IMG/VR virus record: IMGVR_UViG_3300037067_009225
Coordinates: 49,907 to 113,906 of that record
Direction: 5' to 3' (one strand)
Length of the DNA: 64,000 nt
Origin: a virus
Taxonomy: Duplodnaviria > Caudoviricetes
This document shows, piece by piece, positions 1,363 to 47,377 of the stretch. Below the pieces are notes generated by a model. It saw only the letters and a program-made list of their open reading frames with translations, did not search any database and was not told where the DNA came from. The translations under genes and the position numbers were made by a program. Numbering within the stretch: position 1 is the stretch's first letter; the number at the start of each line of letters is the position of its first letter.

Positions 1363-1710
1363 TTAACTTTTATTAAGTAAGTTGTGAATTTTTATCTTTC
1401 TAAGAACATTATTTACCATATTTTTAAAATATGATATAGATTTATGATTTTTATTTTTAATTATTATATCTTTTGTTATTTCTTCAAATTCAATTAAATC
1501 TTCATTCTTTGCTCCATTTGGATATAATAATTTTATCTCTGTTGGTCTATCATTAACTGTAACCAATATAAATTCAATATTATATTTATCATTAACATTA
1601 TTTATATTTTTAAATTGTTCTTGGATGTGTGATACACTTTGTTCAACATAATATCTTCTTAATCCACTAACATTGTAATAAAAAGCTAATATAATAAGTT
1701 GCTTATCCAT
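1363..1710 (-). CDS. hypothetical protein with C-terminal RxxK motif
   Basis: Ends LRKIKIHNLLNKS. Confidence 0.6.
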   Translation of the reverse strand: MDKQLIILAFYYNVSGLRRYYVEQSVSHIQEQFKNINNVNDKYNIEFILVTVNDRPTEIKLLYPNGAKNEDLIEFEEITKDIIIKNKNHKSISYFKNMVNNVLRKIKIHNLLNKS

Positions 1711-1711
1711 T

Positions 1712-1912
1712 TTAAAAAAACTTCTTTAAAAATTTAATAAATTTACTATCTGTATTTCTTTTTAAAAGTTCAACAGTTTTTTCTAACATATTTATTGTCC
1801 TACCTTGCAATTCAACAGATTCTTTAAGTAATTTAATTCTTTCTTCTTTATATTCTATTATTTTTTCTAAATCTTTTATAATTTCATTATATTTTTTTAT
1901 CATGTTCTGCAT
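1712..1912 (-). CDS. small coiled-coil protein
   Basis: Heptad-like E/K/I/L pattern; tightly packed in the operon. Confidence 0.5.
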   Translation of the reverse strand: MQNMIKKYNEIIKDLEKIIEYKEERIKLLKESVELQGRTINMLEKTVELLKRNTDSKFIKFLKKFF

Positions 1913-1918
1913 ATTTTT

Positions 1919-2236
1919 CTAAATTATAAAATACAATATTTCTTGACATTTATGAAAAATTTCGACTGCCAATTTAGATTCCATTTCTAATTTTTTATCA
2001 TCAACATGTATAAAAACACCCCTTTCTTCTACTTCTACTACTTTAATTATTTTAATCCCAATTTTAAATGTATAAATTAATTCACTATCATAAGTTGATG
2101 GTTTTTTTTCAAGATTCATATCACTAAAAAATTTATTTTTTAAAGCATCTAATATAAAATTTCCTAATTTATCATCTCCTGAAATTTCTTTTTTATTTAA
2201 AGAAATGAAACTTTCAAACGTTTTAATGTCTTTCAT
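1919..2236 (-). CDS. hypothetical protein with N-terminal MKxIKxFExF motif (possible head internal protein)
   Basis: Starts MKDIKTFESFI; ends in a rare TAG. Confidence 0.55.
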   Translation of the reverse strand: MKDIKTFESFISLNKKEISGDDKLGNFILDALKNKFFSDMNLEKKPSTYDSELIYTFKIGIKIIKVVEVEERGVFIHVDDKKLEMESKLAVEIFHKCQEILYFII

Positions 2237-2289
2237 ATAATATATTTATTTTTTAACAAGTTGATATCAACAATGTTTTTTAATTTGTT

Positions 2290-2766
2290 TTAAAAATTTT
2301 TTCCTAATTTTTCATCATCTTGAACTTCTTGTTCTTCTTCTTTATCATCTTTCTTTGCTTTCTTAATCATTTCAGGTGTTACATCTTTTAATTCTACATC
2401 AAATTCAAGAAATAATTTTTTTGTTTCTTCATCTTCCCATTTATCTTTAAATTTCAATTCAACATCTTTCTTTCTTTTACTAAGAACACCTGATGTATAT
2501 TCATTATTTAACACATCTGTATAACTTATTTTATAATCTTGTTCAGTTACTTCAAATCTAACAGCAGTTGGCGTTTTTTGTTTTTTTAAAAAATCATCTA
2601 AACTTAAAAATTCAGAATCAACTTTATATTCTGGTTTCTTTGCCTTATCAAACATAGTATCTAAAATATTATCAATATCTTCTACTATATTTTGAAAATC
2701 AGTATTTTCTTTTTTAGATTCTAAAATTTTTTTAAATTCATCAAATCCTAATATATTGTTTCTCAT
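2290..2766 (-). CDS. acidic hypothetical protein with CTS-like N-terminus
   Basis: Starts MRNNILGFDEFKKILES; TTTTTAATATATAAAA upstream. Confidence 0.6.
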   Translation of the reverse strand: MRNNILGFDEFKKILESKKENTDFQNIVEDIDNILDTMFDKAKKPEYKVDSEFLSLDDFLKKQKTPTAVRFEVTEQDYKISYTDVLNNEYTSGVLSKRKKDVELKFKDKWEDEETKKLFLEFDVELKDVTPEMIKKAKKDDKEEEQEVQDDEKLGKNF

Positions 2767-2819
2767 TTTTAAAAAATATTTTTCTTTTTATATATTAAAA
2801 ATGAAAAACCCATTTTTAA

Positions 2820-3293: not shown

Positions 3294-3295
3294 AT

Positions 3296-3586
3296 TTATC
3301 TTTTTTTAAACATTGTTAAAATTTTTTTAATTGTTTTAGTTAAAAAATTATTGTTTATTTCTTCAATTTTTATCTTTCTATTATGTTGTGTTATTAGTTT
3401 ATCTAATTCTTTAATGAATGTTTTATTATCATGTTTTATTATTTCTTCTTGTATCTTCGCATTTATATGAATATAAAAAAAACTTTTATAATAATAATTC
3501 TCCGATTTATCTAACCAATCAAGATTATTTATTTTATTAGTTACATTATAATATCTATTATTAAAAGTAGAAGACATATTATTCAA
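3296..3586 (-). CDS. hypothetical protein with near-terminal RxxK motif
   Basis: ...HNRKIKIEEI... Confidence 0.55.
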   Translation of the reverse strand: MNNMSSTFNNRYYNVTNKINNLDWLDKSENYYYKSFFYIHINAKIQEEIIKHDNKTFIKELDKLITQHNRKIKIEEINNNFLTKTIKKILTMFKKR

Positions 3587-3761
3587 TTATACTATTAATT
3601 TTTAAAATTCTATCATGTTTAAGTTTTCTTTTTTCTATCATTTCTACAAACTTTTCACTATTTAAATATATCATAATAGATTTTTCTTTTGTAGTAAAAT
3701 TTTTTTCAAAAAAATCTGTTAATTCTTGTATTTTTATATATTGATAATTCTTAATCTTCAT
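3579..3761 (-). CDS. hypothetical protein with C-terminal RxxK motif
   Basis: Ends DRILKINSIIE. Confidence 0.55.
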   Translation of the reverse strand: MKIKNYQYIKIQELTDFFEKNFTTKEKSIMIYLNSEKFVEMIEKRKLKHDRILKINSIIE

Positions 3762-3990: not shown

Positions 3991-4008
3991 ATTTTAATTT
4001 TTATAATA

Positions 4009-4016
4009 CAAATATA
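4009..4016 (-). promoter_or_regulatory. Bacteroidota-type -7 promoter box TAnnTTTG (TATATTTG)
   Basis: Same box recurs 15-45 nt upstream of genes at 5761, 8329, 20168, 22969, 24409, 45479 and 47393 (all minus strand); another copy at 55428 (plus strand). Confidence 0.6.
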
Positions 4017-4059
4017 ATAGTTTTTTTTGATATAATGTTATATTATGTAGATATTTTAA

Positions 4060-5848: not shown

Positions 5849-6637
5849 ATGGAAATTAATAAAGATGTATCATATATGATTGGTTTGTTCCAAACTGATG
5901 GTAGTATGTATGAAAATACAAGGAATAGGGGTAGATTTAGTTTAGAATTGGCTATTAGAGATAAAGATATAATATATAAATTGAAAGATATAATACCTTA
6001 TCACAGTGGAATTAAAATAAAAAGAAAATATTCCCATATTAATAACCATGAATATAATAATGAGTTTATTAGTTTAAAAATTTATAATATAACATTTAGA
6101 GATTTTTTAATTAAAAGTGGGGTTCCATATGGCAAAAAATCTAATATTATAAAACCTCCATTATATCTAAAAAATTTATCAATAAATGATTATATAAGAG
6201 GTTTATATGATGGTGATGGTTCTCTTGGTATAACAGCACAAAAGTTTCCATATGTTTCATTTACAACAAAAAGTGATGATATTGCTACATTTTTATGTGA
6301 AAACATAAGTAGAATAACCAGTAAATCTTTAAAAAATATCAAACGAAATAAAAGAGATGATATATATAATATTGTAATTACTAAAGAAGATGCTCAATAT
6401 TTTTGTAATGAAATTTATTATGATGGTTGTCTTTCTATGAATAGGAAAATTGAAAAATCAAATGAAGTTAAATCGTGGATAAGATCAAATGATATGATAC
6501 GTATTGAAAATAAAAAATATTGGACACCAAAAGAAGATGAATATATTTTATCACATACAATAGAAGAATCTATGAATTATTTAGATAGGACAGAAAAAAG
6601 TGTTAAAATTAGATTGTGGAGATTAAAAAATAAATAA
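5849..6637 (+). CDS. free-standing LAGLIDADG homing endonuclease
   Basis: Two LAGLIDADG-like helices, YMIGLFQTDGS and YIRGLYDGDGS; C-terminal WTxxED helix-turn-helix-like tail; antisense to neighbours. Confidence 0.85.
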   Translation: MEINKDVSYMIGLFQTDGSMYENTRNRGRFSLELAIRDKDIIYKLKDIIPYHSGIKIKRKYSHINNHEYNNEFISLKIYNITFRDFLIKSGVPYGKKSNIIKPPLYLKNLSINDYIRGLYDGDGSLGITAQKFPYVSFTTKSDDIATFLCENISRITSKSLKNIKRNKRDDIYNIVITKEDAQYFCNEIYYDGCLSMNRKIEKSNEVKSWIRSNDMIRIENKKYWTPKEDEYILSHTIEESMNYLDRTEKSVKIRLWRLKNK

Positions 6638-8380: not shown

Positions 8381-8677
8381 TTATTCATTAAATATATTAT
8401 TTAGTTTATTTTGTCTTAAAATTTTAGTAAAATTATTTTTTAGATGATATTCAATAATATTAACAATAGATGAATTATCCATTTTTAATTTTCCAACAAT
8501 ATTATCATAATCATTTTTTGTAAAATCAAAAGATAATTTAAATTTTTCTGATGTTTGTTTATTTTTTAATAATACATTAATGTGTGTTACTGACACACCA
8601 TAACTAATGAACCGATATTCATCAACACCAGTTTTTGCTTCATAATCTAATAATTCATAATCATTAAAACTGATCAT
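8381..8677 (-). CDS. hypothetical protein with C-terminal RxxK motif
   Basis: Ends LRQNKLNNIFNE. Confidence 0.6.
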   Translation of the reverse strand: MISFNDYELLDYEAKTGVDEYRFISYGVSVTHINVLLKNKQTSEKFKLSFDFTKNDYDNIVGKLKMDNSSIVNIIEYHLKNNFTKILRQNKLNNIFNE

Positions 8678-9063
8678 AATATTGATTTTATTTTCTTAAC
8701 TCTATAAAAATTTTTAATATCATTTTCGTCAGAACTATTAGGGTATTTCATTTTTAATAAAAGAACAGTAATTCTAATTAATAAATATATTGGCATTAAA
8801 AAAGGAAAAAATACTATTATTGTTTTAAAATTACTATTAAAATTAGCCTTATATAAACAAAAAAAAGAAATTATATACCACGAAGCCCAAAACAGTTGAA
8901 ATAATGATATAAATAAATCTTTTTCTCCATAAAAGAAAAGAATAATTATTGGAGAAAATGAAATAATAACAGATGATATTATTAAAGTTGGTAAAATTGC
9001 TGATAATTTTTTTTGAACTTTACCACCTATTTCAACAGTTTTTATTAAAAAAATATTTTTCAT
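8674..9063 (-). CDS. membrane protein with C-terminal RxxK motif, paralogue of 9517..9927
   Basis: Three hydrophobic segments; FFPFLMPIY...KYPNSSDE...NFYRVKKIKSIL. Confidence 0.6.
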   Translation of the reverse strand: MKNIFLIKTVEIGGKVQKKLSAILPTLIISSVIISFSPIIILFFYGEKDLFISLFQLFWASWYIISFFCLYKANFNSNFKTIIVFFPFLMPIYLLIRITVLLLKMKYPNSSDENDIKNFYRVKKIKSIL

Positions 9064-9927: not shown

Positions 9928-10262
9928 TATAGTATATTTTTAATTTTTTTAATTCTAATATATTTATTATATTCTTCTTTTGAAAATATTTTATCACATT
10001 TTTTACATATATATGAATGATAAATTTTATCGTAATATATTTTATGATTAAAAATTTTACATCCTATGATTTTATTATATGGTTTTATAAAATTATCAAT
10101 AATGAAATAATATCTAACATCTTTATAAAAAAATATATTTTTCAATAAAGATAATACAGATATTAATTTAATTAAAGTCAAATTATTATAAAATAAAGAC
10201 AACTTATTATATGTTATTCTTGGATCACACCACCAATCATATATTGAAAAATTTTCTCTCAA
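9927..10262 (-). CDS. small Zn-finger protein (Cx4H...CxxC), tandem paralogue
   Basis: MRENFSIYDWW; CKIFNH...CKKC; ends YIRIKKIKNIL; TTG start overlaps the upstream TGA. Confidence 0.6.
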   Translation of the reverse strand: MRENFSIYDWWCDPRITYNKLSLFYNNLTLIKLISVLSLLKNIFFYKDVRYYFIIDNFIKPYNKIIGCKIFNHKIYYDKIYHSYICKKCDKIFSKEEYNKYIRIKKIKNIL

Positions 10263-10606
10263 AATAAACTTTTAATTTTTTTAATTCTAATATATTTATT
10301 ATAATTTTCTATTGTAATTTCTTTACCACATCTAAAACACTTATATGTGTAACTTATTTCATTAAATGTATATTTATGATTAAAAATTTTACATTTAAAA
10401 TTTAAAAAAGGTTGTTTAAAATTATCATATATAAATAATTCTCTTTCATAATTATATCTAATGACTTTTTTTAATAATTTTAAAACAGATGATAGTCTAA
10501 TAAAAAACACTTTTAATTTTATATTAGATTTATATTGTGTATGATCAATTGTATATAAGTATCTTGGGTGTTTCCACCAATTTAATATAGAAAAACTTTC
10601 TCTCAA
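10259..10606 (-). CDS. small Zn-finger protein, tandem paralogue
   Basis: MRESFSILNWW; CKIFNH...CFRC; ends YIRIKKIKSLF. Confidence 0.6.
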   Translation of the reverse strand: MRESFSILNWWKHPRYLYTIDHTQYKSNIKLKVFFIRLSSVLKLLKKVIRYNYERELFIYDNFKQPFLNFKCKIFNHKYTFNEISYTYKCFRCGKEITIENYNKYIRIKKIKSLF

Positions 10607-15119: not shown

Positions 15120-15710
15120 TTAATAAAAAATATTATCCATTTTTATTTTTCTTGTTTTTTTTGCCATATTTTTTAAATCTTGTTCATTTAAAAAATTAAT
15201 AGTTAAATTGATGTTATTATCTTTAAATATATTTTTTATTTCTAAACCATATTCATTATTATCTAATAAAATAATTTTTGTTTTTTTATATTTTTGTTCA
15301 TTATAAGAACAATATTGAAAAATAAAATTTCTAAAATGTTTATTATTTTCAAAAAAATATTTAATATCATCTATTATAATAATATTATATAATTTAGAAA
15401 TTATATTGTATTCACTAATATAACTTCTTTCATTTATTGTTGAACCATTTTTTAATTTAAAAAAATTTATTTTTTTATCATATTCTGGATAATTTTTTAT
15501 AATTAAATCAATAACATAAAGCCAACTTAGGTTACGTTTTGTAGTTGTGAAATATACACCATGATATGATTCATTATTTATACAACTTTCCATTAAAAAA
15601 TATTTCAATATAGTTGAAGAACCACAATTATTCGGTCGTATTAATAATATATTATCATTATTTTTTAATATATTAAGTGTATATTCAAAATGATTTTTAT
15701 AATCAATCAT
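15120..15710 (-). CDS. degenerate terminase-ATPase-like P-loop protein with C-terminal RxxK motif
   Basis: ILLIRPNNCGSSTIL (Walker A-like, no Lys), FKLKNGSTI, IIIIDDIKYF (Walker B-like); ends TRKIKMDNIFY. Confidence 0.5.
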   Translation of the reverse strand: MIDYKNHFEYTLNILKNNDNILLIRPNNCGSSTILKYFLMESCINNESYHGVYFTTTKRNLSWLYVIDLIIKNYPEYDKKINFFKLKNGSTINERSYISEYNIISKLYNIIIIDDIKYFFENNKHFRNFIFQYCSYNEQKYKKTKIILLDNNEYGLEIKNIFKDNNINLTINFLNEQDLKNMAKKTRKIKMDNIFY

Positions 15711-16362: not shown

Positions 16363-17006
16363 ATCACTTTAATAAATCTTAAAAATCTACGATACCATTT
16401 CATATCTTTTTTAAACATTTTTAAAAAATTTTTTATTTTTTCATCATGATTAAATGCAAAACTATATTCCATAAAGATTTTGTTTATATTAGCCCAAAAT
16501 GTATATTCTACTTCATCTTTTTCTGTATATTTCAAAGTTAATGTTGGTAATTTTTCTTTTCTTTTTGTTTTAAAAACTATACCATAATAAAGAGTGACAT
16601 TTTGTCTATTAGATTTAACATCAGTTTGAACAAAATATGGTTCTTTTGTATAATCTTTTATTATATTTTTCTTAGTTATATCAGGAACAAAGAAACCACT
16701 TTCTTCATAAACTTCACGAACAAAACATTCATAACCAGACTCATCATAATCGAGATATCCGCAAGGTAAATTCCAATAACCTTGAAAATCAGCAGCACCT
16801 TTACCTCTTTTACCAAGTAAAATATAATATTCACCTTTATGTTTTGTTATAACAACACCAGCAGTCGCAACTGATCTTGATATCCAATATTCTTTATCTT
16901 CTGACATAATACATTTATTATGTGTATTATTAAATATTATGTTTTCTATTTTTTCTTCAGAACCATCTAATTGTGAAATATTCACTTTAATTTGTTTTGT
17001 TATCAT
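16359..17006 (-). CDS. NUDIX hydrolase
   Basis: WNLPCGYLDYDESGYECFVREVYEESG Nudix box; AFNH. Confidence 0.9.
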   Translation of the reverse strand: MITKQIKVNISQLDGSEEKIENIIFNNTHNKCIMSEDKEYWISRSVATAGVVITKHKGEYYILLGKRGKGAADFQGYWNLPCGYLDYDESGYECFVREVYEESGFFVPDITKKNIIKDYTKEPYFVQTDVKSNRQNVTLYYGIVFKTKRKEKLPTLTLKYTEKDEVEYTFWANINKIFMEYSFAFNHDEKIKNFLKMFKKDMKWYRRFLRFIKVI

Positions 17007-17611
17007 ATGTTTCGTAATTTTTTTTCAAGTTTAATTTTTAAAGGAAAATATTTCTTTTTATAGTAATAATAATCATCTTCTTCTGTATCTTTAATTTCAT
17101 CCCAAATATAATTCATAGATGAATAATCAATAATTTTGTTATTTTCACAAATTTGAATAGCAAAATCTAAAATTCTTAATCCATGATATATTGATTTCAA
17201 ACCTCTATATTGATCACCTTCTTCAAAACGACTTTTTGCTCTTTTCCATGCAGTAAAAGATTCACCATAAGACCTATTTTTTATTATGTTTTTATTGAAT
17301 TTAAAATTTTTTAGATAATCAATTTTTTCTAATAATTTAAATTCATTTGGTACAAAAACACATTCCAATGGTTGAATTTCATGATTTTCTAAACGTTTTT
17401 TAAAAATATCAGGTGTTATGACATGAACATTCATTAAATCATGTTCAGGTTTTAATTCTGTATGTTCTTGCATTGTAGAAGCAACAACAATATAATCCCA
17501 ATCTGAATAATCTTCAAATGTTCCATATACTCTTGAACCAAAACAATAAATATTTTTTATTCGTAATGGGTGAATATTAGTTTTCTTAATTATATCGTCT
17601 ATTGTATACAT
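17003..17611 (-). CDS. Pol-beta-superfamily nucleotidyltransferase
   Basis: FGSRVYGT...SDWDYIVV (GS-DxD). Confidence 0.8.
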   Translation of the reverse strand: MYTIDDIIKKTNIHPLRIKNIYCFGSRVYGTFEDYSDWDYIVVASTMQEHTELKPEHDLMNVHVITPDIFKKRLENHEIQPLECVFVPNEFKLLEKIDYLKNFKFNKNIIKNRSYGESFTAWKRAKSRFEEGDQYRGLKSIYHGLRILDFAIQICENNKIIDYSSMNYIWDEIKDTEEDDYYYYKKKYFPLKIKLEKKLRNI

Positions 17612-17612: not shown

Positions 17613-18263
17613 TTATTTGATAATTTCTTTTAATTTTTTAAAACGTATATATTGTTTCATTTCGTTTGTGTTTAATATGTCATTAAAATTATTTTTAATT
17701 GAATCTTTATATATTATATCCATATTATTAGCAACTAATATATTATTTATTCTATTCAAAAATAAAGATTCCAAATTTATTTCTTTAATTTTTTTTAAAT
17801 ATTCATCTATATTTAAAAATGGGAAATTATATAATTCTTCTGTAAAATATGATTTATCGTAATTTGGTAAAGGATGATTATTATAAGTTTCCATCATTTT
17901 AATTTTTATATGTAACTTATTAATTTTATCGCCATGTGTAAAACTTCTAATTATTTCAGAATATTTCAAATCAATTAAATTTTTAATTTTAACACCAAAT
18001 CTTGTTATACCAATTTCATCATTATTATAATCAAATGAATAAAATCTAGTTATGCTTTTATAGTGTTTTCTTAATAATTGTGATAAATTATCGTTATTTG
18101 TACTAATAATATATTTATTATTTATATAATATTCGTATGTTAATATAAATAATTCGTTAGAATTACGTAATATATTAGTGTTTTTATTATAAAAAAATGG
18201 ATTTGGTAAAATTAAAAATTCATCACCATCATTTAATTTATTATGTACACTATGATTATTCAT
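17613..18263 (-). CDS. hypothetical protein with C-terminal RxxK motif
   Basis: LNDGDEFLILPNPF start; ends YIRFKKLKEIIK. Confidence 0.55.
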   Translation of the reverse strand: MNNHSVHNKLNDGDEFLILPNPFFYNKNTNILRNSNELFILTYEYYINNKYIISTNNDNLSQLLRKHYKSITRFYSFDYNNDEIGITRFGVKIKNLIDLKYSEIIRSFTHGDKINKLHIKIKMMETYNNHPLPNYDKSYFTEELYNFPFLNIDEYLKKIKEINLESLFLNRINNILVANNMDIIYKDSIKNNFNDILNTNEMKQYIRFKKLKEIIK

Positions 18264-23988: not shown

Positions 23989-24390
23989 TTATTTTAAAAT
24001 TTTTTCTATTTTTAATTTTCTAATATATTTTATTTTTAAAATATCAGCTATTTCTTTATGTCCTAATTCATTTGCAAAATCAGAAGCTGTTTCATTATTA
24101 TAAGTTTTTAAACTAACATCAGCACCATAATTTATCAATAAATCAATCATTTCTTTTTTTCCTTGAATTGCAGCCTATATTAAAGCAGTATGACCATCTC
24201 TATTTTGATTATTAATATCTGCACCGTTTTGAATTAAATATTTTACAATATCTATTTCACCTTTATATACCATGTGCATCAAAATTGAACTACCAGTATG
24301 TGATTTAATGTTAACATCTATACCAGAATTAATAATTTGTTTTACTATTTCTAAATTATTATCTCTAATATGATCAAATATTTCGTGCAT
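23989..24390 (-). pseudogene. ankyrin-repeat protein interrupted by one in-frame TAG at 24175-24177 (pseudogene, sequence error or readthrough)
   Basis: Frame continues past the stop: GHTALI*AAIQGKKEMIDLLINYGADVSLKTYNNETASDFANELGHKEIADILKIKYIRKLKIEKILK. Confidence 0.75.
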
Positions 24391-26395: not shown

Positions 26396-26983
26396 ATGGC
26401 TCAAAAAATAAAAATTAAACAATTAACATCAGGGTTAGAAACAAGTGGAAAAACATTATTAAGTGATGGTTCTGGTTTATTATCATTTGGTTATTCTCAA
26501 TCAGAAAAAGGTACAATATTTCCAATTAAACCTGTTAATGGTGATAAATTTTATTATTTAATTGATAACGAAGAATATATCTTTGATGGTGTTAGAGATA
26601 AATGGTTATCGTTAAAAAGAGAAACTATTATATTAGGTAGAAATAGTATAGCATTTAATGTATCAGCATATTTAGGTATTGCAGATAACGTACATTCAAG
26701 CACATCTGGTATTTTAATGAAATATAACGGTACAATATTATCAGCATCTATTGATAATAATAATAATATGAATTCTGATAGAATAATTGAAATTAGAGTT
26801 AATAATAGTTTATCTAATAAGGTTGTGTTAACAATTTTAAATGGTACTAAATCTATTAGTGTGAACAATGCTAATATAAATTTTGAAAGTGGTGATATAT
26901 TACATTCAATAGCATTAAATAATGATGTTGAACCATCATTAGAAAATATAAGTCTTATAATAGAAATAGCTAAAAGAAATTAA
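26396..26983 (+). CDS. putative virion/fibre-associated protein
   Basis: MAQKIKIKQL start, GTIFP..P..GD.FY motif, beta-rich; late-type motif upstream; precedes the fibre gene. Confidence 0.55.
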   Translation: MAQKIKIKQLTSGLETSGKTLLSDGSGLLSFGYSQSEKGTIFPIKPVNGDKFYYLIDNEEYIFDGVRDKWLSLKRETIILGRNSIAFNVSAYLGIADNVHSSTSGILMKYNGTILSASIDNNNNMNSDRIIEIRVNNSLSNKVVLTILNGTKSISVNNANINFESGDILHSIALNNDVEPSLENISLIIEIAKRN

Positions 26984-26988
26984 ATATT

Positions 26989-29900
26989 ATGATAAGAGAA
27001 GTATTTATAGTAAAGAATAACATAACAAGTGATGTAGAATTGAAAGATTTTGGTTATATTATACCATCTGGACAAACTGTTGAATTACAAGATTATAATA
27101 AAGCTGTTTTGTCTGATGAATTATATAATTATTTAAGTGGTAATACATTGATTAGAATTATAGATAACAACGAAGTTTCTTTTGAAAATTCATATGATGT
27201 TGTTACTAATAATTATTTTGAAGAATCATATAAAGAAATAAGTGTTGCTAAAAGTGGTGCAACATTCAATTCTATACAATCTGCTATTGATTCAATAAGT
27301 GGAGCAACAACAAATAACAGATATGTTATTAATGTTGGTGTTGGTGATTATATAGAAAACATAATATTAAAAGATTATGTTATAGTACAAGGTATATCAC
27401 AATCAACAGTTAGAATATATGGTAATTTAACAGTGCAAAGTGGTTCTACTGGATATTGTAAAATTAAAGATGTTCAATTTATAACATATGATGAATCAAC
27501 CGCAGTATTAAATACATCTGGTACAATTATTATTTCTGATGTTACATTAAATAGTATATGGAGTGGAACAACACAAAATAAATATGTTGTTGATTTACAA
27601 AAAGGAGATATTCAAATTATTGGTAAATCAACATTAATATTAACTGATTCTTATTTAGGCGTAGAAAATACTACAAATTTTATTTTTAATATAAATGGTA
27701 ATGATATTGTTAAAATGTTAGCTATTAATATTATATGTACAAAAAATGTATATAATGATAATAATTTAATTGGTAATGTTAATAACACAAACACAAATAG
27801 TGAAACTTGTGTAAAAATTAGAAACTCAACATTTCAAACTTTATTATATGGGTTAAATTCAAATAATATTATATATGATATTTTTCATAGTGGGGCATCT
27901 TGTATAACAGAAATATATAATACTGCTTTTGATACAGATATAATTAATGATGAAAATGCAACAATAAAATATATATCAGCTTATAATTCTTATTCGCAAG
28001 GATATGGTTCAACCATTAATATAATTTCAAGTAAAATATCTTGGTGTGATATTATTGATGATTCAGATATTTATATTGGTGCTTCTATTTCTGATATTGA
28101 TATAGTTAAAATTATTAATTGTACATATAATACATATAATGATACATTACCAACTATTTATACAAATGATGGTAATTCAGGTTTTACTTATTATTCTATA
28201 AATAATGGTGTTGGTACATATTACGTTAATGATAAATTAGTAACAAATAATATATTAATAGGTGGTATAAATTCTATTGTAATATCTAATGTATTAGATA
28301 TATTAAGTGGTTATAGTACATCATCATTAGTAACCGAAAATGGTATTAGAAATTTCTATCAAAATGGTGTTTCTGAAATTATATTTACAAACACTGGATG
28401 GACAAACACTACACAAACTGTAGAAAGTTTTTTAGAAGATTTAACAGAATATACAGAACAAACAAATGGTAGTGGTGTAAATGATCAATATAATTTATTA
28501 TTTGGTGCTGAAACAAGTACGGTAACTATTTCTGGTGGAACTGGTTATATAAATTATTTACATTTTCATAAAAAAATCACTTGGAATACAACACAAATTG
28601 TTGTTAGTGGTTATACTGATGATTTATATCATGTTTATATTGATTCTAATGTTAATATTAATATATCAAATACTGAACCAAATAAATATCAAAATATTTA
28701 TTTGGGTATGTTTTATTATTCTGGTGGCAAAATTGTAAATATTGTAGACATATCATTAAAATTAAATAATTCAATGAATTTAGCTTTAGATTCTATGACT
28801 AATTTAGGTATGTTTATTTATGATAATGGTGGAAATGTTCAAGCATTAACTGCTAATACATTACAAATTTATAGTTCACCTTGTAAAGCACAATTTGGTT
28901 TTACAAAATATGATTTATCATATATAGATAGTACAAATACAACAACATTTAAATTTGTTTTTACATATGAAACATCTAACATTGGGTTTCAAGTTGATTT
29001 TTATAGAATGTTTAATCCAACAAAATTAGGTGAAATTTATACTGATAGATATAATGATCAATATGGTGTTGCAGATGTTGAATTATCTGGTATTACAGCA
29101 ACTTTCACAACAAATAGTAATTTAGTAACATCTTCATCCGATTTAACATCATTATTAAATGATGATTATTATATTTATTTCGTTGATGATACATCATTAT
29201 ATATGACACCTATTTCATCAGTTACATGGAATGGTTCAACAACAACAATAACATTAGAAAGTGAATATTTAGGTTCTGGTGGTACAGGTAGTGTTTATTA
29301 TAATAGTTGTTTACCAAAAATACCAACTGATGAATATATTAAACATTTAATTATTAGACAAACTAATGATACACTTGTTCTTGTAATGTCACAATTAACT
29401 TTTAATACAGATTCAGAAGCTATTTCAGGGCCAATCCCTGAACCACCAACTTATTTAGAAAAATTTATTATTAAAATGGCATCTATTGTTACTAAACAAG
29501 GTGATACAACATTAGTAGGTAAAATATATGACATTAGACCATTACCATTTCTTTATAGTACACTTAGTGGTAGTGGCGGTGGTGTTTCTTCTCATAGTGC
29601 ATTATCAGATTTAGGTAATGATGACCACTTACAATATCTTAGAACAGATGGAACAAGAAATATAACAGATATTATTTCTTATAATAATAATAATAAAACA
29701 TTTTTAACTGATACTGATATTATCAGTAAAAAATATGTTGATGATGGATTAGATGAAAAATCTGATAGTGGACATACTCACACAATTATAAATAATAGTT
29801 TAATTATATCTGGTGATTTAACAGTATCTGGTACTACAACTTTTATAAATACCGAAGATTTAAATGTTTTTGATAATATGATCTATATTAATAGTGGTGA

Positions 29901-38825: not shown

Positions 38826-39275
38826 ATGAGTTTATTAAAAAAAATAATATTATTTTTAATTGAATTAATAGAAAAATTTGAATATAGAAATCAAAAAAAT
38901 TTATATAATCAAGAAACTGAATTAAATAAAATATTAAATATATTACCCATATCTGATATCACAATTAAAACAGATTATGGATATGTACCTATATCAGAAA
39001 TAAATTTAACTAAACCATATCAAATTTATAAAGTAGAATTAGAAAATGGAGATTTATTAGAATGTGCAGATACACACATTATTTTCACAAAAAATCATGA
39101 GGCAAAATTTGTAAAAGATTTGACTCTTAATGATTATGTTTTATGTAAAGAAAATTTTATTGATGGTATAAAAGTTAAGAACATTAAAAAAATTAATCAT
39201 AAAGTATCTATGTTTGATTTAACTATAAACACACCTGAAATGAGTTATTATTCAAATAATATACTTTCTCATAAC
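38826..39275 (+). other. split intein C-fragment (150 aa)
   Basis: Contains block B (LECADTHIIF), block F (MFDLTI) and block G (YYSNNILSHN); Thr+1 at 39276. Confidence 0.85.
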
Positions 39276-41129
39276 ACAGTTTCGGCTGCTATTGTTATAT
39301 TACATTTTTGTCTTTTTAATGACGATAAGAACGTAATGGTTGTAGCTAACAAAGGAACAACTGTTATTGAAATTGTTGAAAAAATAAAAAGTATTTATAA
39401 ATTATTACCATTTTTCTTAAAAAAGGGTGTTATAAACTGGAATCAAAAAGCTATTACTTTTGATAATGGTTGTTCAATAAAAACAGAAAAAAGAACTAAA
39501 GAACCAGCAATCGGTTTTACGATTGACATGCTTTACCTTGATGAGTTTGCAAAAATTCCTAATAATATAATTAGACCATATTATACTTCTGTTGTTCCTG
39601 TTGTTTCTTCTATTAAAAATTCAAAAATTATTATTACATCAACACCTGATGGCTATAATTTATTTCACGAATTATTAACTAATGCAGAAAGACCTAAAGG
39701 TGATCCATTGAAGAATCCTTATAAAGCAATGAGAGTTTATTGGTGGCAAATACCTGGGCGTAGAGATACAAAGATATATTTTAATGAACAAAAACTTAAA
39801 AAATATAATGTTACAAAAAATGATATTTTAAAATATTTTAAAGATGCACAAGGATATGAAATTTATAAAGCACAAGAAGATGAAGAAGTTGTATATAAAA
39901 TAAAATTTGATTCAGATTTAGATAAAACAACAATAAATTTCATTAGACAAATTAGGTATAATAATATACCTTTACCTGAATTATGTTTAATAACTAATTG
40001 GCAAGAACAAGAAACCAAACTTATTGGTGGTGAAGACGCATTCAAACAAGAATATGATTTACAATTTATAGCTGGTAATAAACTCTTATTTGATAATGTA
40101 GCTTTAGAAAAGATTAAAATGGGTGAAGAAGTTTTTGATTATCAAGAAATTGATATTATAACAAAAAATTTTAAATTACCTTATACTGATTTACAATTTA
40201 TTCAAAATAGACCAGATTTATTTGATATAAATAAAGTAAAAGATTATACAATTTTATATGGTATAGATTTGAGTGAAGGTTTAAGTCAAGACCATTCAAT
40301 TATAAATATTTTTAGATTATTACCAAAAGAAAAAGAGGTTATTGAAAAAAATAAACATAAATTTACAGATATTTATGATTATTTTAAATTAGAACAAATC
40401 GGTATATTTAGAAATAATATTTATTCTTTAAATGAAGTTGCATTTTTATTTTATTTGATAGCTTTTGAATTTTTTGATCCTGAAAAATCAAAAGCGGTTT
40501 TAGAATTAAACACATATGGTGGTGAGTTTTTAGCACATTTACCAAACGTATTAAACCAAATAAATAATTATTCAAATTCTATATTTTTTAGATTTATACA
40601 TAAAATTGGAGATAGTATTAAAAAGATAGGTTTAAAAATAACTGGTGGTAACGATGGAAAAAAATTATTGGTAAAAGATTATCAAACTGCAGTTAAAAAA
40701 GGTAGTATAATAATTCATAATGATGTCAATATTAAAGAATTATTTGTTTTTACTAAAAAAGAAACACCTAATGGTAGTGTTACATATCAAAGCGAAAGTG
40801 GTCATGATGATTGTGTTATGTCTGTAATAAACTTATCAGCATGTTTAAATACAACACAATATAAAGATATTATTGATACTTATATGCAACATTATTTAGA
40901 CGTAGAAACAAGAAGTTTAATAGAATCTTATATAAATGTATATAATGAAGGTTTAAGTACACCAAATATTGAATCTTTTTCAAGTGGATATAAAAGAGTA
41001 TATGGAAATAATAACCAGACATCAGGTTATCCTATAAGAAAACCTAATCCTTTTGGTGGTAATAGATTTCCAAATCAAAATGGTGGTATGTTTAAACCAC
41101 CTATTAAAAAATCACCTTTTGGTAATTAA
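38826..41129 (+). CDS. terL: split-intein C-part fused to the terminase large subunit C-terminal fragment
   Basis: Intein ends ILSHN|TVSAA; then FDNGCSI, MLYLDEFA (Walker B), ITSTPDG, FKQEY, GIDLSEG and HDDCVMS nuclease motifs. Confidence 0.9.
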   Translation: MSLLKKIILFLIELIEKFEYRNQKNLYNQETELNKILNILPISDITIKTDYGYVPISEINLTKPYQIYKVELENGDLLECADTHIIFTKNHEAKFVKDLTLNDYVLCKENFIDGIKVKNIKKINHKVSMFDLTINTPEMSYYSNNILSHNTVSAAIVILHFCLFNDDKNVMVVANKGTTVIEIVEKIKSIYKLLPFFLKKGVINWNQKAITFDNGCSIKTEKRTKEPAIGFTIDMLYLDEFAKIPNNIIRPYYTSVVPVVSSIKNSKIIITSTPDGYNLFHELLTNAERPKGDPLKNPYKAMRVYWWQIPGRRDTKIYFNEQKLKKYNVTKNDILKYFKDAQGYEIYKAQEDEEVVYKIKFDSDLDKTTINFIRQIRYNNIPLPELCLITNWQEQETKLIGGEDAFKQEYDLQFIAGNKLLFDNVALEKIKMGEEVFDYQEIDIITKNFKLPYTDLQFIQNRPDLFDINKVKDYTILYGIDLSEGLSQDHSIINIFRLLPKEKEVIEKNKHKFTDIYDYFKLEQIGIFRNNIYSLNEVAFLFYLIAFEFFDPEKSKAVLELNTYGGEFLAHLPNVLNQINNYSNSIFFRFIHKIGDSIKKIGLKITGGNDGKKLLVKDYQTAVKKGSIIIHNDVNIKELFVFTKKETPNGSVTYQSESGHDDCVMSVINLSACLNTTQYKDIIDTYMQHYLDVETRSLIESYINVYNEGLSTPNIESFSSGYKRVYGNNNQTSGYPIRKPNPFGGNRFPNQNGGMFKPPIKKSPFGN

Positions 41130-42011
41130 TTTTGCTAATAATTTATAAATATCATTTTTTGTTTCATGCCATAAATCTTCATTGATACGAATAAATGTAC
41201 ATTTATATTTATTTTCAATATATTTTTGTCTTTCTAAATCTTTAGAAATTTTATTTTTATGATATTTTTCATCATATTCAATTATTATATTATGAGATTC
41301 GATATAACCATCAACAAAATATCTTTCAAATTTCTTTTCTCCACCATTTAAAGCATGTTGAATGTTAACATTAAAATGTTTGGATATTTCGTTAAATATA
41401 TCAATAGATTTAATATTAAAATTAGGAACTATATGAAAAAAAGCTTCGCCTTTATTTTTTATACATGTTTCAATTGCTTTATTTAAAATATTAATATTTT
41501 GTAATGGATATTTACAACCATTATTTTTTAAGCAAGTTTGTTCTCTTTTATATATAACTTCTTTATCTTGTAATGCATATTCTACATTCCTTCTTTTAAG
41601 ATTCGTTTTTTTCATTTTTTCTTTTACTATTTCACATTGCGCTGGATATTCAACATTATAATTATTTAAACTTGTTTGTATCTTTTTTTCTTTAATAAAA
41701 TCTAATTTAGAAACATTTGTTGTGTTGTATTTTTCTAAAATAGTATTATCTCTTTTTATTTTACAACAATCTTTACAATAATATTTTTCTGTTAATTCAT
41801 TAGTAAATAAATAATAATCTTTAAAAACAACATATTTTTCTTTATGACATTCATCACATTTACATTTTATTTTAATATGAGAACCTTTACTAATATGTTT
41901 TACGTTTATTTCAAAAAAATTATTATATTTAGTAAAAATATAACCTAAATTTTCATAATGTTTTCTATTATTTACATGCCATCTTATTAAAATTTTATTA
42001 TCAACTATCAT
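41112..42011 (-). CDS. putative homing endonuclease (Vsr/DUF559-like C-terminus)
   Basis: CKCDEC...CKDCC Zn motif, KYN/NYN repeats, HALNGGEK, FVDGYIESHNIIIEYDEKYH; overlaps the terL 3' end convergently. Confidence 0.72.
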   Translation of the reverse strand: MIVDNKILIRWHVNNRKHYENLGYIFTKYNNFFEINVKHISKGSHIKIKCKCDECHKEKYVVFKDYYLFTNELTEKYYCKDCCKIKRDNTILEKYNTTNVSKLDFIKEKKIQTSLNNYNVEYPAQCEIVKEKMKKTNLKRRNVEYALQDKEVIYKREQTCLKNNGCKYPLQNINILNKAIETCIKNKGEAFFHIVPNFNIKSIDIFNEISKHFNVNIQHALNGGEKKFERYFVDGYIESHNIIIEYDEKYHKNKISKDLERQKYIENKYKCTFIRINEDLWHETKNDIYKLLAKLITKR

Positions 42012-42087
42012 TTTTACTTTTTTATATTTAAAAAAATAAACTTTGTTGATTTTTTGTTATATAATTAATTAAACAAAAAATATATTT

Positions 42088-42909
42088 ATGTCTACTAAAA
42101 GAGAACTTAAAAAATTAGATTTTTCTTTTTCTAAAGAACAATTACAAAAATTTATTGATAAATTATCAGATTTATCAGCCATTGATGATTATATTGTATT
42201 TAAAATAGATAAGAAAAACTTTTTAATATATACGGTGGCATCTGATCCAAGTGATAAAAATAATAGAACCATATTAGCTTTTAAAAGTTATACATTTGAT
42301 TTATCTGAAATAATTAATATTAAAAATGATTTGGATGAACAAATAGTTTATATTTTAAAAGATACTAAAAAAACATTAAGAAATATTAGAAATTTTATAG
42401 AATTTGATGAGATTATTACATGTAGTATAACATATGATTCTATTAATGATATAAATTTTGGTGATTGTTTTAAATTAAAAAATAGTAAATTAAGATTAAA
42501 TTTTCAAGGTGGATCACCAAGAGATTCTAACATAAAAATAAGCACTAATGCTATAAAAGAAAAATCTACACCAGAATTAATGTTGTTTGATTTTAATATA
42601 ACTAAAGAAGATTTTGATAAAGCTAAAAAATTAGCATTAATTGAAGTAGAAAATGATGTTATATACTTTGTTGTACATGATAAAGAATTAAGTATTGCAG
42701 AAAATCGTTGGGCCTTAAAATTATGTGATTTTACATATAAAGATAAAAGTGATGTAGATTTAGATATAAATATTTGTATACCTAAAAGATTTTTCAAAAC
42801 AGCAACTTGTGATGATAAAGGTTTAAATGTAAAAATATTTCAAACTCACATAATAATGGATAATGAAAAATCAAGCTTAATGATATCAAGACAAATATCA
42901 TTAAATTAA
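42088..42909 (+). CDS. putative DNA polymerase sliding clamp (gp45/PCNA-like)
   Basis: 273 aa with two repeated helix/beta-strand modules of clamp-like periodicity; no diagnostic motif. Confidence 0.4.
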   Translation: MSTKRELKKLDFSFSKEQLQKFIDKLSDLSAIDDYIVFKIDKKNFLIYTVASDPSDKNNRTILAFKSYTFDLSEIINIKNDLDEQIVYILKDTKKTLRNIRNFIEFDEIITCSITYDSINDINFGDCFKLKNSKLRLNFQGGSPRDSNIKISTNAIKEKSTPELMLFDFNITKEDFDKAKKLALIEVENDVIYFVVHDKELSIAENRWALKLCDFTYKDKSDVDLDINICIPKRFFKTATCDDKGLNVKIFQTHIIMDNEKSSLMISRQISLN

Positions 42910-42929
42910 AAAAAAAATAAAATAAAAAT

Positions 42930-43577
42930 ATGAAAAAAATAATAGAATTAATTAATAGTGAACATATTCATTTTAGAGATGAAAATATTATAGTTGATGA
43001 AAACGATAAAGAAATAATAAAAGATAAAATATCTTTACCATTAAGAAGTTTTGATGTTCAAAATATTGAAAAATCTGGTTTAATTTTAGATATAACATTA
43101 CAAAATATGTTTTATGGTGAAATAAAAACAAAAATATATAATATAGTATTAAAACATATTTTCAATTCTAATAATATTAAAAAAATTGATGGTTCTTTGT
43201 CATATAAAAGCGATTCAGAATTATATAAATTATTAAACAACAATAACGATTATACATTAGTTTCTAACGTTCAAGTAGGAACAGTTATTAGTGATATGTC
43301 TATTTATAATTATATTAATATTAAAAATATAACCACAAATGGTCATATGTATGAATATGGTAATATTTATGATAATGCTATTTGTATTGATCCTTATATG
43401 AGATGGGATGATAATAGAATGGCTATGGTGTTTAATAAATTTTTTAATTTTAAAATTGATTCTTTAGTAGATTTAAAATATATTGATACATTTACACCTG
43501 CACTTGATGCTGATATATATATCAAATTTAATGATGTTATTGTAGATTTATATCAAGTAGAAAATATACAAATTTAA
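42930..43577 (+). CDS. divergent major-capsid-protein-like (gp23 P-domain) fragment
   Basis: TLVSNVQVGTVISD...MYEYGNIYDNAICIDPYMRWDDNRM recalls the gp23 NFII...V...GxLxGxxVYxDxY segment. Confidence 0.4.
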   Translation: MKKIIELINSEHIHFRDENIIVDENDKEIIKDKISLPLRSFDVQNIEKSGLILDITLQNMFYGEIKTKIYNIVLKHIFNSNNIKKIDGSLSYKSDSELYKLLNNNNDYTLVSNVQVGTVISDMSIYNYINIKNITTNGHMYEYGNIYDNAICIDPYMRWDDNRMAMVFNKFFNFKIDSLVDLKYIDTFTPALDADIYIKFNDVIVDLYQVENIQI

Positions 43578-44027: not shown

Positions 44028-44045
44028 AAAACAAAATATAAAATT

Positions 44046-44996: not shown

Positions 44997-44999
44997 AAG

Positions 45000-45028
45000 A
45001 AAAGGGAAATTTTTTAATTTCCCTTTTT
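45000..45028. terminator. bidirectional intrinsic terminator
   Basis: AAAAGGGAAATT/AATTTCCCTTTT between convergent genes. Confidence 0.75.
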
Positions 45029-45455
45029 ATTTTTTATAAAGTTGGTTTTTTAATTCATTAAAGCAAACATTACCCCAATATTTTTCAAATCTACAAGATT
45101 TTAATTCATGTGGATGATAAAAACTAATATATTCTTCATCAAAACCTTTTTTTCTCATATCTTTTAAAATTTTAACAAATTCTTTATTATTTAAAAGATA
45201 ATGTTTATATTCATGTGCAACAACTTCACATAAATTTTTATAACTATTTATATTTTCTAAAAAAACACTAATAAAATTTTTTTTATAATCATAACAACCA
45301 TACAATCCATTTTTACCATAAGATAAACCTTTTGAGTTGCATACTCTCAATTTAGGCATTTTTTTAACAAATTCAGATTTACCGAATTTGTTAATACACC
45401 ATTCTAAAATAATCTCAACCTTTTCTCTACTAATATTTTTTTCTACCAGATTCAT
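45027..45455 (-). CDS. HExxH zinc metallopeptidase-like protein
   Basis: LYGCY...VVAHEYKHYL...HPHE; TAAATTTG box at 45479-45486. Confidence 0.6.
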   Translation of the reverse strand: MNLVEKNISREKVEIILEWCINKFGKSEFVKKMPKLRVCNSKGLSYGKNGLYGCYDYKKNFISVFLENINSYKNLCEVVAHEYKHYLLNNKEFVKILKDMRKKGFDEEYISFYHPHELKSCRFEKYWGNVCFNELKNQLYKK

Positions 45456-45565
45456 TTTTGATTATTTTAATTATTATACAAATTTAAAGAAAAATATTAA
45501 GAAAAAAAAATATTTTTAAATAAATTTAGATATTTATGAATAAATAATGATTATTTATTCACATT

Positions 45566-46516
45566 TTACTGTTTATTTATGTTTAAAATATTATTAAATT
45601 CCTTTAATAATTCTGAATTATCGTTTATTTTAGATAAAATTAACTCATCTACATCAAAAAAATCACTTATTCTATCATCTTCAGGCTCTTTTACATCTTC
45701 TTCACAAATCAAAGATTGGATGTTATAATTAGATATTTTTATTTTAAATTCCATATTATCCATTAAATCTTTATTAACTACCATATCTACAACATTATTT
45801 TGAAAATATGTTTCATCAAAATTTTTTAATTCTTCTATATTATTAATATGTAATGTTACAAATTTGAAATTTGTTTTGTTTAAAATGAATTTATCATTAT
45901 TACTATTAATATCCAATACAAAAAAACCTTTATTTTTAGTGTTTGGTTCAATTTGATATGGTGTGCCAACTGAAACAATATTATTTTCTACATAATTATC
46001 TTTTGAATATCCAGAATATATTTTTTTATATTTTAATAAATAGTTTTTATCAATATTACTCATATTATTAGATGTGAATATATAATCTATATTTTCATGT
46101 TTATTTAAAATATTAATAATATTTTTATCATATGAAAATAGTAATATATTATCATTTATTGACATTGTATCATTTACAATAAAAATATTCTTATAATTTT
46201 TAAATATTGTTAATGTATTTATATCGTTATTTGATGTGTATCTATCATGTTCACCAATTAAGAAATAAACTGGCAATATATTTGAAATTTTTTCAAAAAT
46301 AGTTTGAACAGAATTAATAGCTTTTACATTTAACTGTTGTTTACTAACAAACAGATTTCCTAAATGAATAAAATAATCGTCTTTTTTAGCGTATTTTTGA
46401 AGAAAAGGTATTAATTCATCATTGAAGAATTTTTCACTTTCTTCTAAAAAACGATTAAATCCGACATAATTTTTGTAGCCAAAAAGTGTATTTGATATAG
46501 AAAAAATTTTAGACAT
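45566..46516 (-). CDS. Mre11/SbcD/gp47-like metallophosphoesterase with degenerate metal ligands
   Basis: ISNTLFG (cf. SDxH), HLGNLF (GD), LIGEHD (GNHD), YSGYS (GHxH), VGTPYQ, KGFFVLD. Confidence 0.7.
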   Translation of the reverse strand: MSKIFSISNTLFGYKNYVGFNRFLEESEKFFNDELIPFLQKYAKKDDYFIHLGNLFVSKQQLNVKAINSVQTIFEKISNILPVYFLIGEHDRYTSNNDINTLTIFKNYKNIFIVNDTMSINDNILLFSYDKNIINILNKHENIDYIFTSNNMSNIDKNYLLKYKKIYSGYSKDNYVENNIVSVGTPYQIEPNTKNKGFFVLDINSNNDKFILNKTNFKFVTLHINNIEELKNFDETYFQNNVVDMVVNKDLMDNMEFKIKISNYNIQSLICEEDVKEPEDDRISDFFDVDELILSKINDNSELLKEFNNILNINKQ

Positions 46517-46546
46517 ACATATTATATATCTAAAATATTATAAAGT

Positions 46547-47377
46547 TTATTCTATTAAATTTTTTATTTTAATTAACCTTTCATCTTTAATAGATTCCAG
46601 CTTAAACTTTTCATCATAAATAAGAGATATTAAATCTTCTTTACTTATTCTCATATGAGAACCTTCTGGAATATTATTATACATGTAATATTCTATATAA
46701 ATACTATCATTTATTATCTTTTTGATAGTAAATTTATGAATTTTATTTCTTTTATGTAATGTTTTTTTTGCTGTTAATAGAATATCTCTAATATAAGTTA
46801 CTCCAACATATATACTTTTATCTAATATTTCAAATTCAATACTTTTATGTACTGATTTAATTTTATTTTTAATTTTTGAAACTTCACTTTCTAATTGATA
46901 TTTTTCTTTTTGTGTTGTATAATATACTTTATAAAACTTTAATAAATTTTTATAAAAAATAGATTTATTCTTTATATCTTCACCTATATTTCCAAGTAAA
47001 ATTATGGCATTCAATTTATGGTTATCATCAACATCGAAATCATATTTTATATAATTAATCACAAAATTTATATCATTTTCTTTTTTTCTTTCGTCACCAT
47101 AAATATAATTATACGAAAAATTGAATTGTGCAAAATTAGTATTATAGTAATATAAAGTTATAGTATCAAATTCCAATTTAATTTCAAAATTGAAATCTTT
47201 TGAACATTTTTTATTCAGAATCGTTTTCAATTTAATAATATTCTTTAAACATAAATTATTAAATTTATCAGATATATTACGATATTTAATCTCCTTTTTG
47301 TTTAATTCCTTATTAAACTTATCTAACTCATTATTAAGTTCATTAATATTATATCCAGTATAAGTATCTAACACCAT
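46547..47377 (-). CDS. coiled-coil hypothetical protein with C-terminal RxxK motif
   Basis: Likely ATG at 47377 after TATCTTTG (47393-47400); ends ERLIKIKNLIE. Confidence 0.55.
   Translation of the reverse strand: MVLDTYTGYNINELNNELDKFNKELNKKEIKYRNISDKFNNLCLKNIIKLKTILNKKCSKDFNFEIKLEFDTITLYYYNTNFAQFNFSYNYIYGDERKKENDINFVINYIKYDFDVDDNHKLNAIILLGNIGEDIKNKSIFYKNLLKFYKVYYTTQKEKYQLESEVSKIKNKIKSVHKSIEFEILDKSIYVGVTYIRDILLTAKKTLHKRNKIHKFTIKKIINDSIYIEYYMYNNIPEGSHMRISKEDLISLIYDEKFKLESIKDERLIKIKNLIE

Follow-up and report, generated by a model that had tools for sequence, protein, structure and literature searches.

Why do many unrelated proteins of one phage end in nearly the same residues? The question is raised by a window of 64,000 nucleotides, bases 49907-113906 of one 113,906-bp contig (IMG/VR record IMGVR_UViG_3300037067_009225; GC 22%). 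The original prediction, made from the letters of this window, listed 23 open reading frames (ORFs) with the motif R-x-x-K-[ILM]-x-x-[IL] near the C-terminus, and all 23 of them carry it. The motif is called the tag below, the conserved end around it the tail, and the proteins that bear it the carriers. Judging from the sequence comparisons described here, the tail is reasonably likely to be a docking tag with one common reader.

C-terminal enrichment and selection on the protein

In 22 of the 23 ORFs of the window, 0-7 residues follow the motif; in the other (3296-3586), 19 residues do. Within 10 residues of the stop codon the motif is found in 41 of the 174 ORFs of the whole contig, about a quarter. 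Shuffling each protein gives 0.28 +/- 0.55 ORFs with the motif (maximum 3 in 500). Internal matches number 11 in ~33,000 positions, which corresponds to a ~64-fold enrichment per position at C-termini. An unbiased scan of gapped words in a reduced alphabet ranks the same motif top at C-termini (p ~1e-45). The excess over shuffles and internal windows, which the original prediction had proposed as a check, holds (41 against 0.28).

The conserved positions are rigid. Position 1 is taken by Arg in 41 carriers and by Lys in just one, even though the proteome has four times as much Lys (11.0%) as Arg (2.8%). Position 4 is Lys in 41 and never Arg. Elsewhere, position 5 departs from Ile, Leu, or Met twice and position 8 from Ile or Leu once. 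The invariant Arg is spelled by four codons, including CGT at 17613, CGA at 9060, and AGG at 46547 as named in the original prediction. Position 5 uses TTA (13), ATA (13), ATT (12), ATG (3), CTA (2), and ATC (1). Thus the conserved positions are encoded by several codons, differing even in the first base, and the variable positions differ freely. The tag is also present where no gene follows downstream. Because codons vary at conserved positions, selection acts on the protein rather than on a repeat, promoter, or ribosome site in the DNA, and the same argument, put forward in the original prediction from the Arg codons, is borne out.

Shape of the tail

Weak conservation spans positions -4 to +9 and is followed by 0-8 residues, often acidic. 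The tail of ~14 residues can be written [K/I]-x-x-[I/L]-R-x-x-K-[I/L]-x-x-[I/L]-[L/I/F/G]. Among 350 pooled distinct tails, 0-10 residues lie beyond position 8 (mode 2), with 1-3 residues in 233 of the 350. On a helical wheel the conserved residues fall on one 180-degree face, with the Arg central in a hydrophobic stripe. In the predicted fold of one Zn-ribbon carrier (10259..10606), the tag lies in a C-terminal helix (residues 99-114; pLDDT 61). At the protein level the tail is a short linear motif and, as modelled, a C-terminal amphipathic helix.

Some likenesses to known motifs were considered. The phage encodes a sigma-70-type factor of 285 aa (L006:9809-10666, contig 26809-27666, plus strand) with a full motif match in its region 4.2 helix, 15 residues from the end. 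The resemblance of the tail to sigma-70 region 4.2 is treated as chance, since conservation among the carriers stops at position -4. Likenesses to the PIP box and to SAP/HeH were set aside for mismatched spacing.

Carriers and their genomic setting

When the tail is cut off, the bodies of 44 carriers, three of which have the motif 12-19 residues before the end, sort into 37 unrelated families, in line with the earlier remark that the bodies differ completely. None of 20 large carriers (10 from this phage and 10 from the huge phage LR745206) has a Pfam family, against 28 of 40 non-carriers (Fisher p 1e-7). The observation that recognisable enzymes and virion proteins lack the tail therefore holds. 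A named domain is found in a single carrier, the ankyrin protein. As several carriers cross the membrane multiple times, the tail would have to be read in the cytoplasm.

The word TAnnTTTG is found within 90 nt upstream of 9 of 18 units with tagged genes and of 7 of 57 units without (p 0.0017), which supports the link between carriers and such units drawn in the original prediction. The late-type word TAATATATA shows the opposite trend across tagged and untagged units. We take TAnnTTTG to be the Bacteroidetes housekeeping -7 box. Because many of their units are headed by this host-type promoter box, the carriers are probably host-transcribed early genes. All carriers had been said to lie on the minus strand. 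This is true inside the window and fails for the contig, which has 12 carriers on the plus strand in its left part.

The carriers of the window are as follows (window coordinates).

1363..1710, minus strand: carrier of 115 aa; 4 residues after the tag
3296..3586, minus strand: carrier of 96 aa, the outlier; motif 19 residues from the end
3579..3761, minus strand: carrier of 60 aa; 2 trailing residues
3751..3990, minus strand: carrier of 79 aa; 5 trailing residues
4060..4314, minus strand: carrier of 84 aa; 5 trailing residues
8381..8677, minus strand: carrier of 98 aa; 3 trailing residues; final gene of a nine-gene unit (8 of 9 tagged), just upstream of ClpP
8674..9063, minus strand: multi-span membrane protein of 129 aa; 1 trailing residue
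9060..9563, minus strand: carrier of up to 167 aa, start uncertain; Arg codon CGA; 7 trailing residues
9517..9927, minus strand: membrane protein of 136 aa, paralogue of 8674-9063; 5 trailing residues
9927..10262, minus strand: carrier of 111 aa, Zn-ribbon paralogue family; 1 trailing residue
10259..10606, minus strand: carrier of 115 aa, Zn-ribbon family; predicted fold with the tag within the C-terminal helix
10603..10944, minus strand: carrier of 113 aa, Zn-ribbon family; 1 trailing residue
10941..11147, minus strand: carrier of 68 aa, short member of the Zn-ribbon family; 1 trailing residue
14476..14766, minus strand: carrier of 96 aa; 0 trailing residues, the tag ending at the stop
15120..15710, minus strand: carrier of 196 aa, no Pfam family; 2 trailing residues
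15712..16362, minus strand: carrier of 216 aa, paralogue of 17613-18263; 1 trailing residue
17613..18263, minus strand: carrier of 216 aa; Arg codon CGT; 2 trailing residues
18570..18854, minus strand: Cys-rich carrier of 94 aa; 5 trailing residues
18851..19240, minus strand: carrier of 129 aa; 2 trailing residues
22988..23545, minus strand: membrane protein of 185 aa; 1 trailing residue
23532..23987, minus strand: carrier of 151 aa; 6 trailing residues
23989..24390, minus strand: ankyrin-repeat carrier in two in-frame pieces (TAG at 24175-24177); tag on the downstream piece; 2 trailing residues
46547..47395, minus strand: carrier of 282 aa, isolated in the late/structural region; Arg codon AGG; 2 trailing residues

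The ankyrin gene is interrupted by a lone in-frame TAG (24175-24177, minus strand) within an ankyrin repeat, giving pieces of 71 and 53 aa. TAG is the stop codon of just 10 of the 174 ORFs of the contig. The interruption could be a case of read-through, local TAG recoding, or a fresh pseudogene.

An enriched word is also found at N-termini, Met-Lys followed by hydrophobic or aromatic residues every three. It occurs on more than 100 ORFs each in LR745206 and LR756501 and on ~15-25 here. Four paralogues of this phage (e.g., L005:9794-11418) have both this word and the C-terminal tag.

Spread among huge phages

The contig is from a tailed phage, encoding a T4-type large terminase (TerL) with tail and baseplate proteins. 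Among its other products are DnaB, an intein-bearing ribonucleotide reductase, RtcB, ClpP, an M16 peptidase, a Dam methylase, and enzymes of NAD salvage. A terminal repeat is absent, and CheckV puts the contig at ~16% of a complete huge phage. The nearest terminases are those of the 630-735 kb "huge phages" LR756501-504 and LR745206, which are assigned to the Mahaphage clade with Bacteroidetes as predicted hosts (Al-Shayeb et al., PMC7162821).

The counts of tagged ORFs in these and other genomes are given below.

This contig, GC 22%: 41 of 174 ORFs
LR745206, GC 29%: 112 of 990 ORFs (1.5 expected)
LR756502 (sample), GC 31%: 45 of 443 ORFs
LR756504 (sample), GC 26%: 33 of 421 ORFs
G001, an 83-kb IMG/VR contig, GC 27.5%: 6 of 118 ORFs
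74 IMG/VR loci around DUF2201 homologues, GC 22-39%: 153 of 1,902 ORFs, with at least one tag in 54 loci
LR756501, GC 32%: 1 of 1067 ORFs
LR756500 (sample), GC 24%: 1 of 409 ORFs
Tenacibaculum phage PTm1, GC 30%: 1 of 324 ORFs
Sphingomonas phage PAU, GC 31%: 0 of 303 ORFs

The tag is clade-wide among huge phages. A survey of related jumbo phages had been proposed with the original prediction, and the 112 ORFs of LR745206 and 153 ORFs of the IMG/VR loci answer it in favour of the tag. Since the tag is on 5-11% of ORFs at 26-31% GC and is absent from a relative at 24% GC, composition is no explanation.

Orthologues tend to keep the tag. Of the orthologue pairs between LR745206 and LR756502, 11 are tagged in both genomes, 8 in one genome only, 4 in the other only, and 135 in neither (p 3e-9). 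Most of the 8 pairs have relaxed forms with position 4 or 8 changed. Two more orthologue sets retain the tag at ~30% body identity. For almost every carrier of this contig, no homologue can be detected in LR745206, implying that the tail outlasts the bodies carrying it. The carriers are a large, fast-turning-over set of mostly small proteins.

Several features of this material stand apart from the tag. The ribonucleotide reductase large subunit (window 47461-51309, minus strand) is split by an intein with a LAGLIDADG homing endonuclease. L005:13685-17377 (minus strand) encodes a fusion of 1,230 aa, consisting of an SbcD-like phosphoesterase and an SbcC/Rad50-like ATPase, with 41% identity to its LR756501 counterpart. 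One IMG/VR locus, L166 (IMGVR_UViG_3300014204_012379, 13,208 bp), is a perfect self-mirror around position 6,600, with every gene repeated inverted, and is probably an assembly or amplification hairpin artefact.

Variants and replacement tails

The 350 pooled tails form two variants, split by position 2 and each uniform within a genome. Variant 1, that of this phage, LR756504, and the closest IMG/VR relatives, hardly ever has Asp, Glu, or Asn at position 2; one of these occurs in 1 of 41 tails here, against ~9 predicted by composition. In variant 2 (LR745206, LR756502, and some fifteen other loci) position 2 is almost always one of these residues (92 of 112 in LR745206 and 10 of 10 in L216). 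Such a concerted variant within a genome is what is expected if one co-evolving partner reads every carrier.

LR756501 is the nearest relative of this phage by terminase and most core genes, yet it is without the R-x-x-K tag. Instead, ~38 of its ORFs, unrelated to one another, end in [K/R]-[I/V]-[F/Y]-S-x-x-D-P-Y-G-E-E-x-W plus 0-3 residues, a tail absent from all other genomes examined. Examples are found at the following places.

LR756501.1, 145582-146127, 499642-503452, 552409-555773, and 697593-698165 (loci L043-L044, L060-L064, and L071): ORFs with the D-P-Y-G-E-E-x-W tail

This appears to be a second, unrelated C-terminal tag, which has replaced the R-x-x-K tag in the sister lineage.

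A similar exchange is seen within one body family. A nucleotidyltransferase-like family with no Pfam model follows the gene for a MoxR ATPase in three lineages (L007:8532-9104, contig 42532-43104; L172:13312-13908; L173:14043-14597). It has 242 representatives in a library of 1.8 billion proteins, and the nearest members have R-x-x-K-like tails. Among the best 150 of the 242, 23 have an acidic tail ending in Pro-Phe, like the tip of SSB, and four have a third type. No SSB-tip-like acidic Pro-Phe tail is found in this contig, and the tag itself is basic. As one body family has differing tails by lineage, the tails are modular and lineage-specific. A word-indexed homologue search with this family matched only itself. 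The tagged genes that follow MoxR in this phage and in L164 are not homologous.

Search for the reader

The original prediction suggested ClpP or the M16 peptidase, both encoded next to the carriers, as readers for which the tag would be a degron or processing signal. In an initial set of eight genomes, 4 of 4 tag-positive and 0 of 4 tag-negative ones had a strong match to ClpP. The unfoldases of tag-positive LR745206 and LR756504 have the ClpP-docking V-G-F loop, and that of tag-negative LR756501 is ClpB-like and lacks it. The tail is also basic, then hydrophobic, and near the C-terminus, loosely recalling a MuA-type ClpX signal. However, the support for ClpP was lost when 28 more contigs and the ClpP-centred loci were added. 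Five tag-positive genomes that are 91-100% complete (G003, G004, G011, G013, and G017) have no PF00574 match, and 33 loci around ClpP homologues have no tags. ClpP is thus not required. M16 is doubled in tag-negative LR756501 and missing in tag-positive G017. The tag also lies at a varying short distance from the last residue, and what is conserved is a helix face. A signal for the phage's own ClpP or M16 is very unlikely. A nucleotidyltransferase encoded at window 17003-17611 was rejected together with M16 as a necessary partner, as neither co-occurs with the tag as it should.

The unfoldases differ among these phages. That of LR745206 (L027:17224-19329) is ClpC/E-like, with the V-G-F loop, a UVR motif, and an acidic N-terminus, and has no Clp_N. 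That of LR756501 (L053:3511-5745) is ClpB-like; it has Clp_N and lacks the docking loop, and the phage has no ClpP. That of LR756504 (L089:17587-18744) is ClpX-like, with 385 aa and no zinc-binding domain.

Another candidate is a CobS/CobT-like pair that lies inside a tagged array of this phage.

Contig 40824-42098: MoxR AAA+ ATPase
Contig 38991-40703: DUF2201 protein, a zincin plus von Willebrand factor A (vWA) domain, with HExxH and MIDAS motifs intact

Such a pair might capture the tail and remodel or clip the carrier. All tag-bearing genomes found via TerL (this phage and LR756501-504) encode the pair, and neither tagless PTm1 nor PAU does. Of 13 tag-positive genomes, 12 encode a MoxR with 57-64% identity, while the LR756501 copy is much more divergent, although this genome is the closest for TerL and most core genes. 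Tagged arrays reach DUF2201 in this phage, L173, LR745206, and LR756502. It is also reported that vWA domains capture peptides at their MIDAS sites (PMC7159879). The usual MIDAS ligand, however, is acidic, and the R-x-x-K tail is basic. LR756501 also has the pair, but its other tail does not adjoin it. Two signs of linkage, tagging of the gene after MoxR (5 of 11 lineages) and arrays abutting DUF2201, gave p 0.004 in 11 lineages and did not recur in 60 dereplicated loci. In that larger set, a tag is found on the gene following MoxR in 2 of 32 loci (expected 1.8), and no peak of tags is found beside DUF2201 (2 of 59 at rank -1). More tags lie upstream (~11%) than downstream (~5%) of DUF2201 in these loci. 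The IMG/VR loci were fetched through DUF2201, and the co-presence of tag and pair in them is by construction. On these comparisons, MoxR co-varies with the tag only weakly, and the pair is an unlikely reader, though less unlikely than ClpP or M16.

Weighing the explanations

Could the tail be an artefact of K/I/N-rich composition, a DNA or RNA signal at gene ends, or the mark of one paralogous family? The genome has a GC content of 22%, and many tagged genes overlap the next start codon. Nevertheless, chance is excluded by the shuffle and internal-position controls, a DNA signal by synonymous variation and by tags where no gene follows, a single family by the 37 body families, and composition by the presence of the tag at 29-32% GC and its absence at 24%. 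The probability of an artefact is negligible. An amphipathic helix for general membrane targeting, as in MinD or FtsA, would bring carriers to the inner membrane and would share with the tail its C-terminal place, basic and amphipathic character, length of ~14 residues, and predicted helix. Membrane helices, however, tolerate exchange of Lys and Arg, which position 1 (R:K 41:1 against a background of 1:4) and position 4 (K:R 41:0) do not. The invariant Arg is also central in the hydrophobic stripe, and several carriers are integral membrane proteins to begin with. Position 2 changes as a set from lineage to lineage, and the tail of the sister lineage is acidic and non-amphipathic. Membrane targeting is accordingly improbable. 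For a signal for capsid loading (and so injection) or export, there are precedents in short terminal loading peptides (encapsulin cargo peptides and the T4 capsid-targeting sequence), and huge phages package many proteins. But the tagged units are headed by the host-type TAnnTTTG and not by the late-type word, multi-span membrane proteins are among the carriers, and no virion or enzyme family has the tail. The packaging or export signal that the original prediction also offered is hence highly unlikely.

It is also conceivable that the tails bind each other, gathering early proteins in mixed bundles or a condensate with no separate reader. Identical one-faced helices, often followed by acidic residues able to pair with the Arg and Lys of a partner helix, would suit this, and self-recognition would also give concerted variation within a genome. 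A helix of ~14 residues with a charged core residue is, however, a weak oligomeriser, and such self-association has a small probability, only slightly above that of membrane targeting. The idea of a common docking signal, which came with the original prediction, stands on the unrelated bodies, the one-faced helix, its retention in orthologues, and the concerted shifts; the ClpP and M16 readers attached to it do not stand.

Several points weigh against a docking tag with a common reader. No reader was found among the phage proteins tried: ClpP, M16, and the nucleotidyltransferase all fail as necessary partners, and MoxR and DUF2201 have no excess of tags beside them in the 60 dereplicated loci. 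Tags could in principle bind each other instead of a separate reader. The helix is modelled in a single fold of low confidence. The position-2 difference between the variants could owe a little to base composition, and the early timing would follow from a promoter-like word at half of the tagged units.

Proposed mechanism and significance

If the tail is indeed a docking tag, one common cytoplasmic partner, co-evolving with the tag, may recognise the carriers as a class. Recognition might lead to a common post-translational handling, and our guess is a timed removal or remodelling by an ATP-dependent machine. Candidates for this machine are a host protease and the phage's own CobS/CobT-like pair of MoxR and vWA-zincin. 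That reading of the tag ends in turnover of the carrier is a guess, and a rather doubtful one. A wider proposal, which we hold as possible though not likely, is that huge phages of Bacteroidetes use a proteome-wide address code. Each lineage would label 5-25% of its proteins, a fast-evolving early accessory set, with one C-terminal tag. A single co-evolving reader, of phage or host, would handle the class (e.g., by removing early proteins, or moving them elsewhere, at a defined time), and tag and reader would be swapped as a pair.

The majority of huge-phage genes lack an assigned function, and a label common to hundreds of them would define a functional class without homology; the tag peptide would be a direct handle for finding the reading machine. 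Should the reader govern where carriers go or how long they last, phage infection would have a further, so far undescribed level of control in time or space, and Bacteroidetes work would gain a portable tag. Given enough complete genomes, the concerted variants and the complete swap of the tail in the sister lineage should make a co-evolving partner findable by comparative genomics.

Comparison with known systems

No description of this tag was found in the literature searched. Among known systems, the cargo-loading peptides of encapsulins are also short C-terminal peptides that dock unrelated proteins onto one partner. They differ in being found on a few cargo genes beside the shell gene, in their Gly-Ser-Leu-type motif, and in their role in assembly, whereas the tag is on 5-25% of phage genes, many in host-promoter units and including membrane proteins. 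The T4 capsid-loading signal is N-terminal, unlike the tag.

The ssrA tag, the MuA-type ClpX signal, and the SspB tail are terminal peptides that give unrelated proteins a common fate, and the MuA type is, like the tag, basic and then hydrophobic. In contrast to these degrons of AAA+ proteases, the tag is conserved as a helix face, is not fixed at the last residue, and does not require phage ClpP. NorQ-NorD, CbbQ-CbbO, and viral cobST-like systems are MoxR-vWA pairs with dedicated clients, resembling the pair encoded by this phage. To our knowledge, none of them has a client tag of this sort.

Docking on a hub by one terminal peptide of many proteins, with co-evolution, is seen in the SSB C-terminal tip, the acidic tails of T7 gp2.5 and gp4, the clamp-binding tails of T4, and PIP boxes. 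The acidic Pro-Phe ending of the SSB tip is shared by distant members of the nucleotidyltransferase-like family. These hub-docking tails serve a handful of DNA-handling enzymes, whereas the tag is basic, helical, and present on dozens to hundreds of proteins. The ankyrin/PRANC (F-box-like) proteins of poxviruses and the SOCS/BC-box proteins combine variable bodies with a common C-terminal docking helix, and a similar design would fit carriers such as the ankyrin and Zn-ribbon proteins as adaptors. They belong to eukaryotic ubiquitin-ligase systems, and no sequence relation to the tag was found.

A further likeness is to the effectors of type IV secretion systems (Dot/Icm and VirB/D4), in which hundreds of unrelated, fast-evolving proteins have one C-terminal signal. 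Those signals are read by a secretion coupling complex, an apparatus not evident here, and are loosely defined, whereas the tag is far more rigid.

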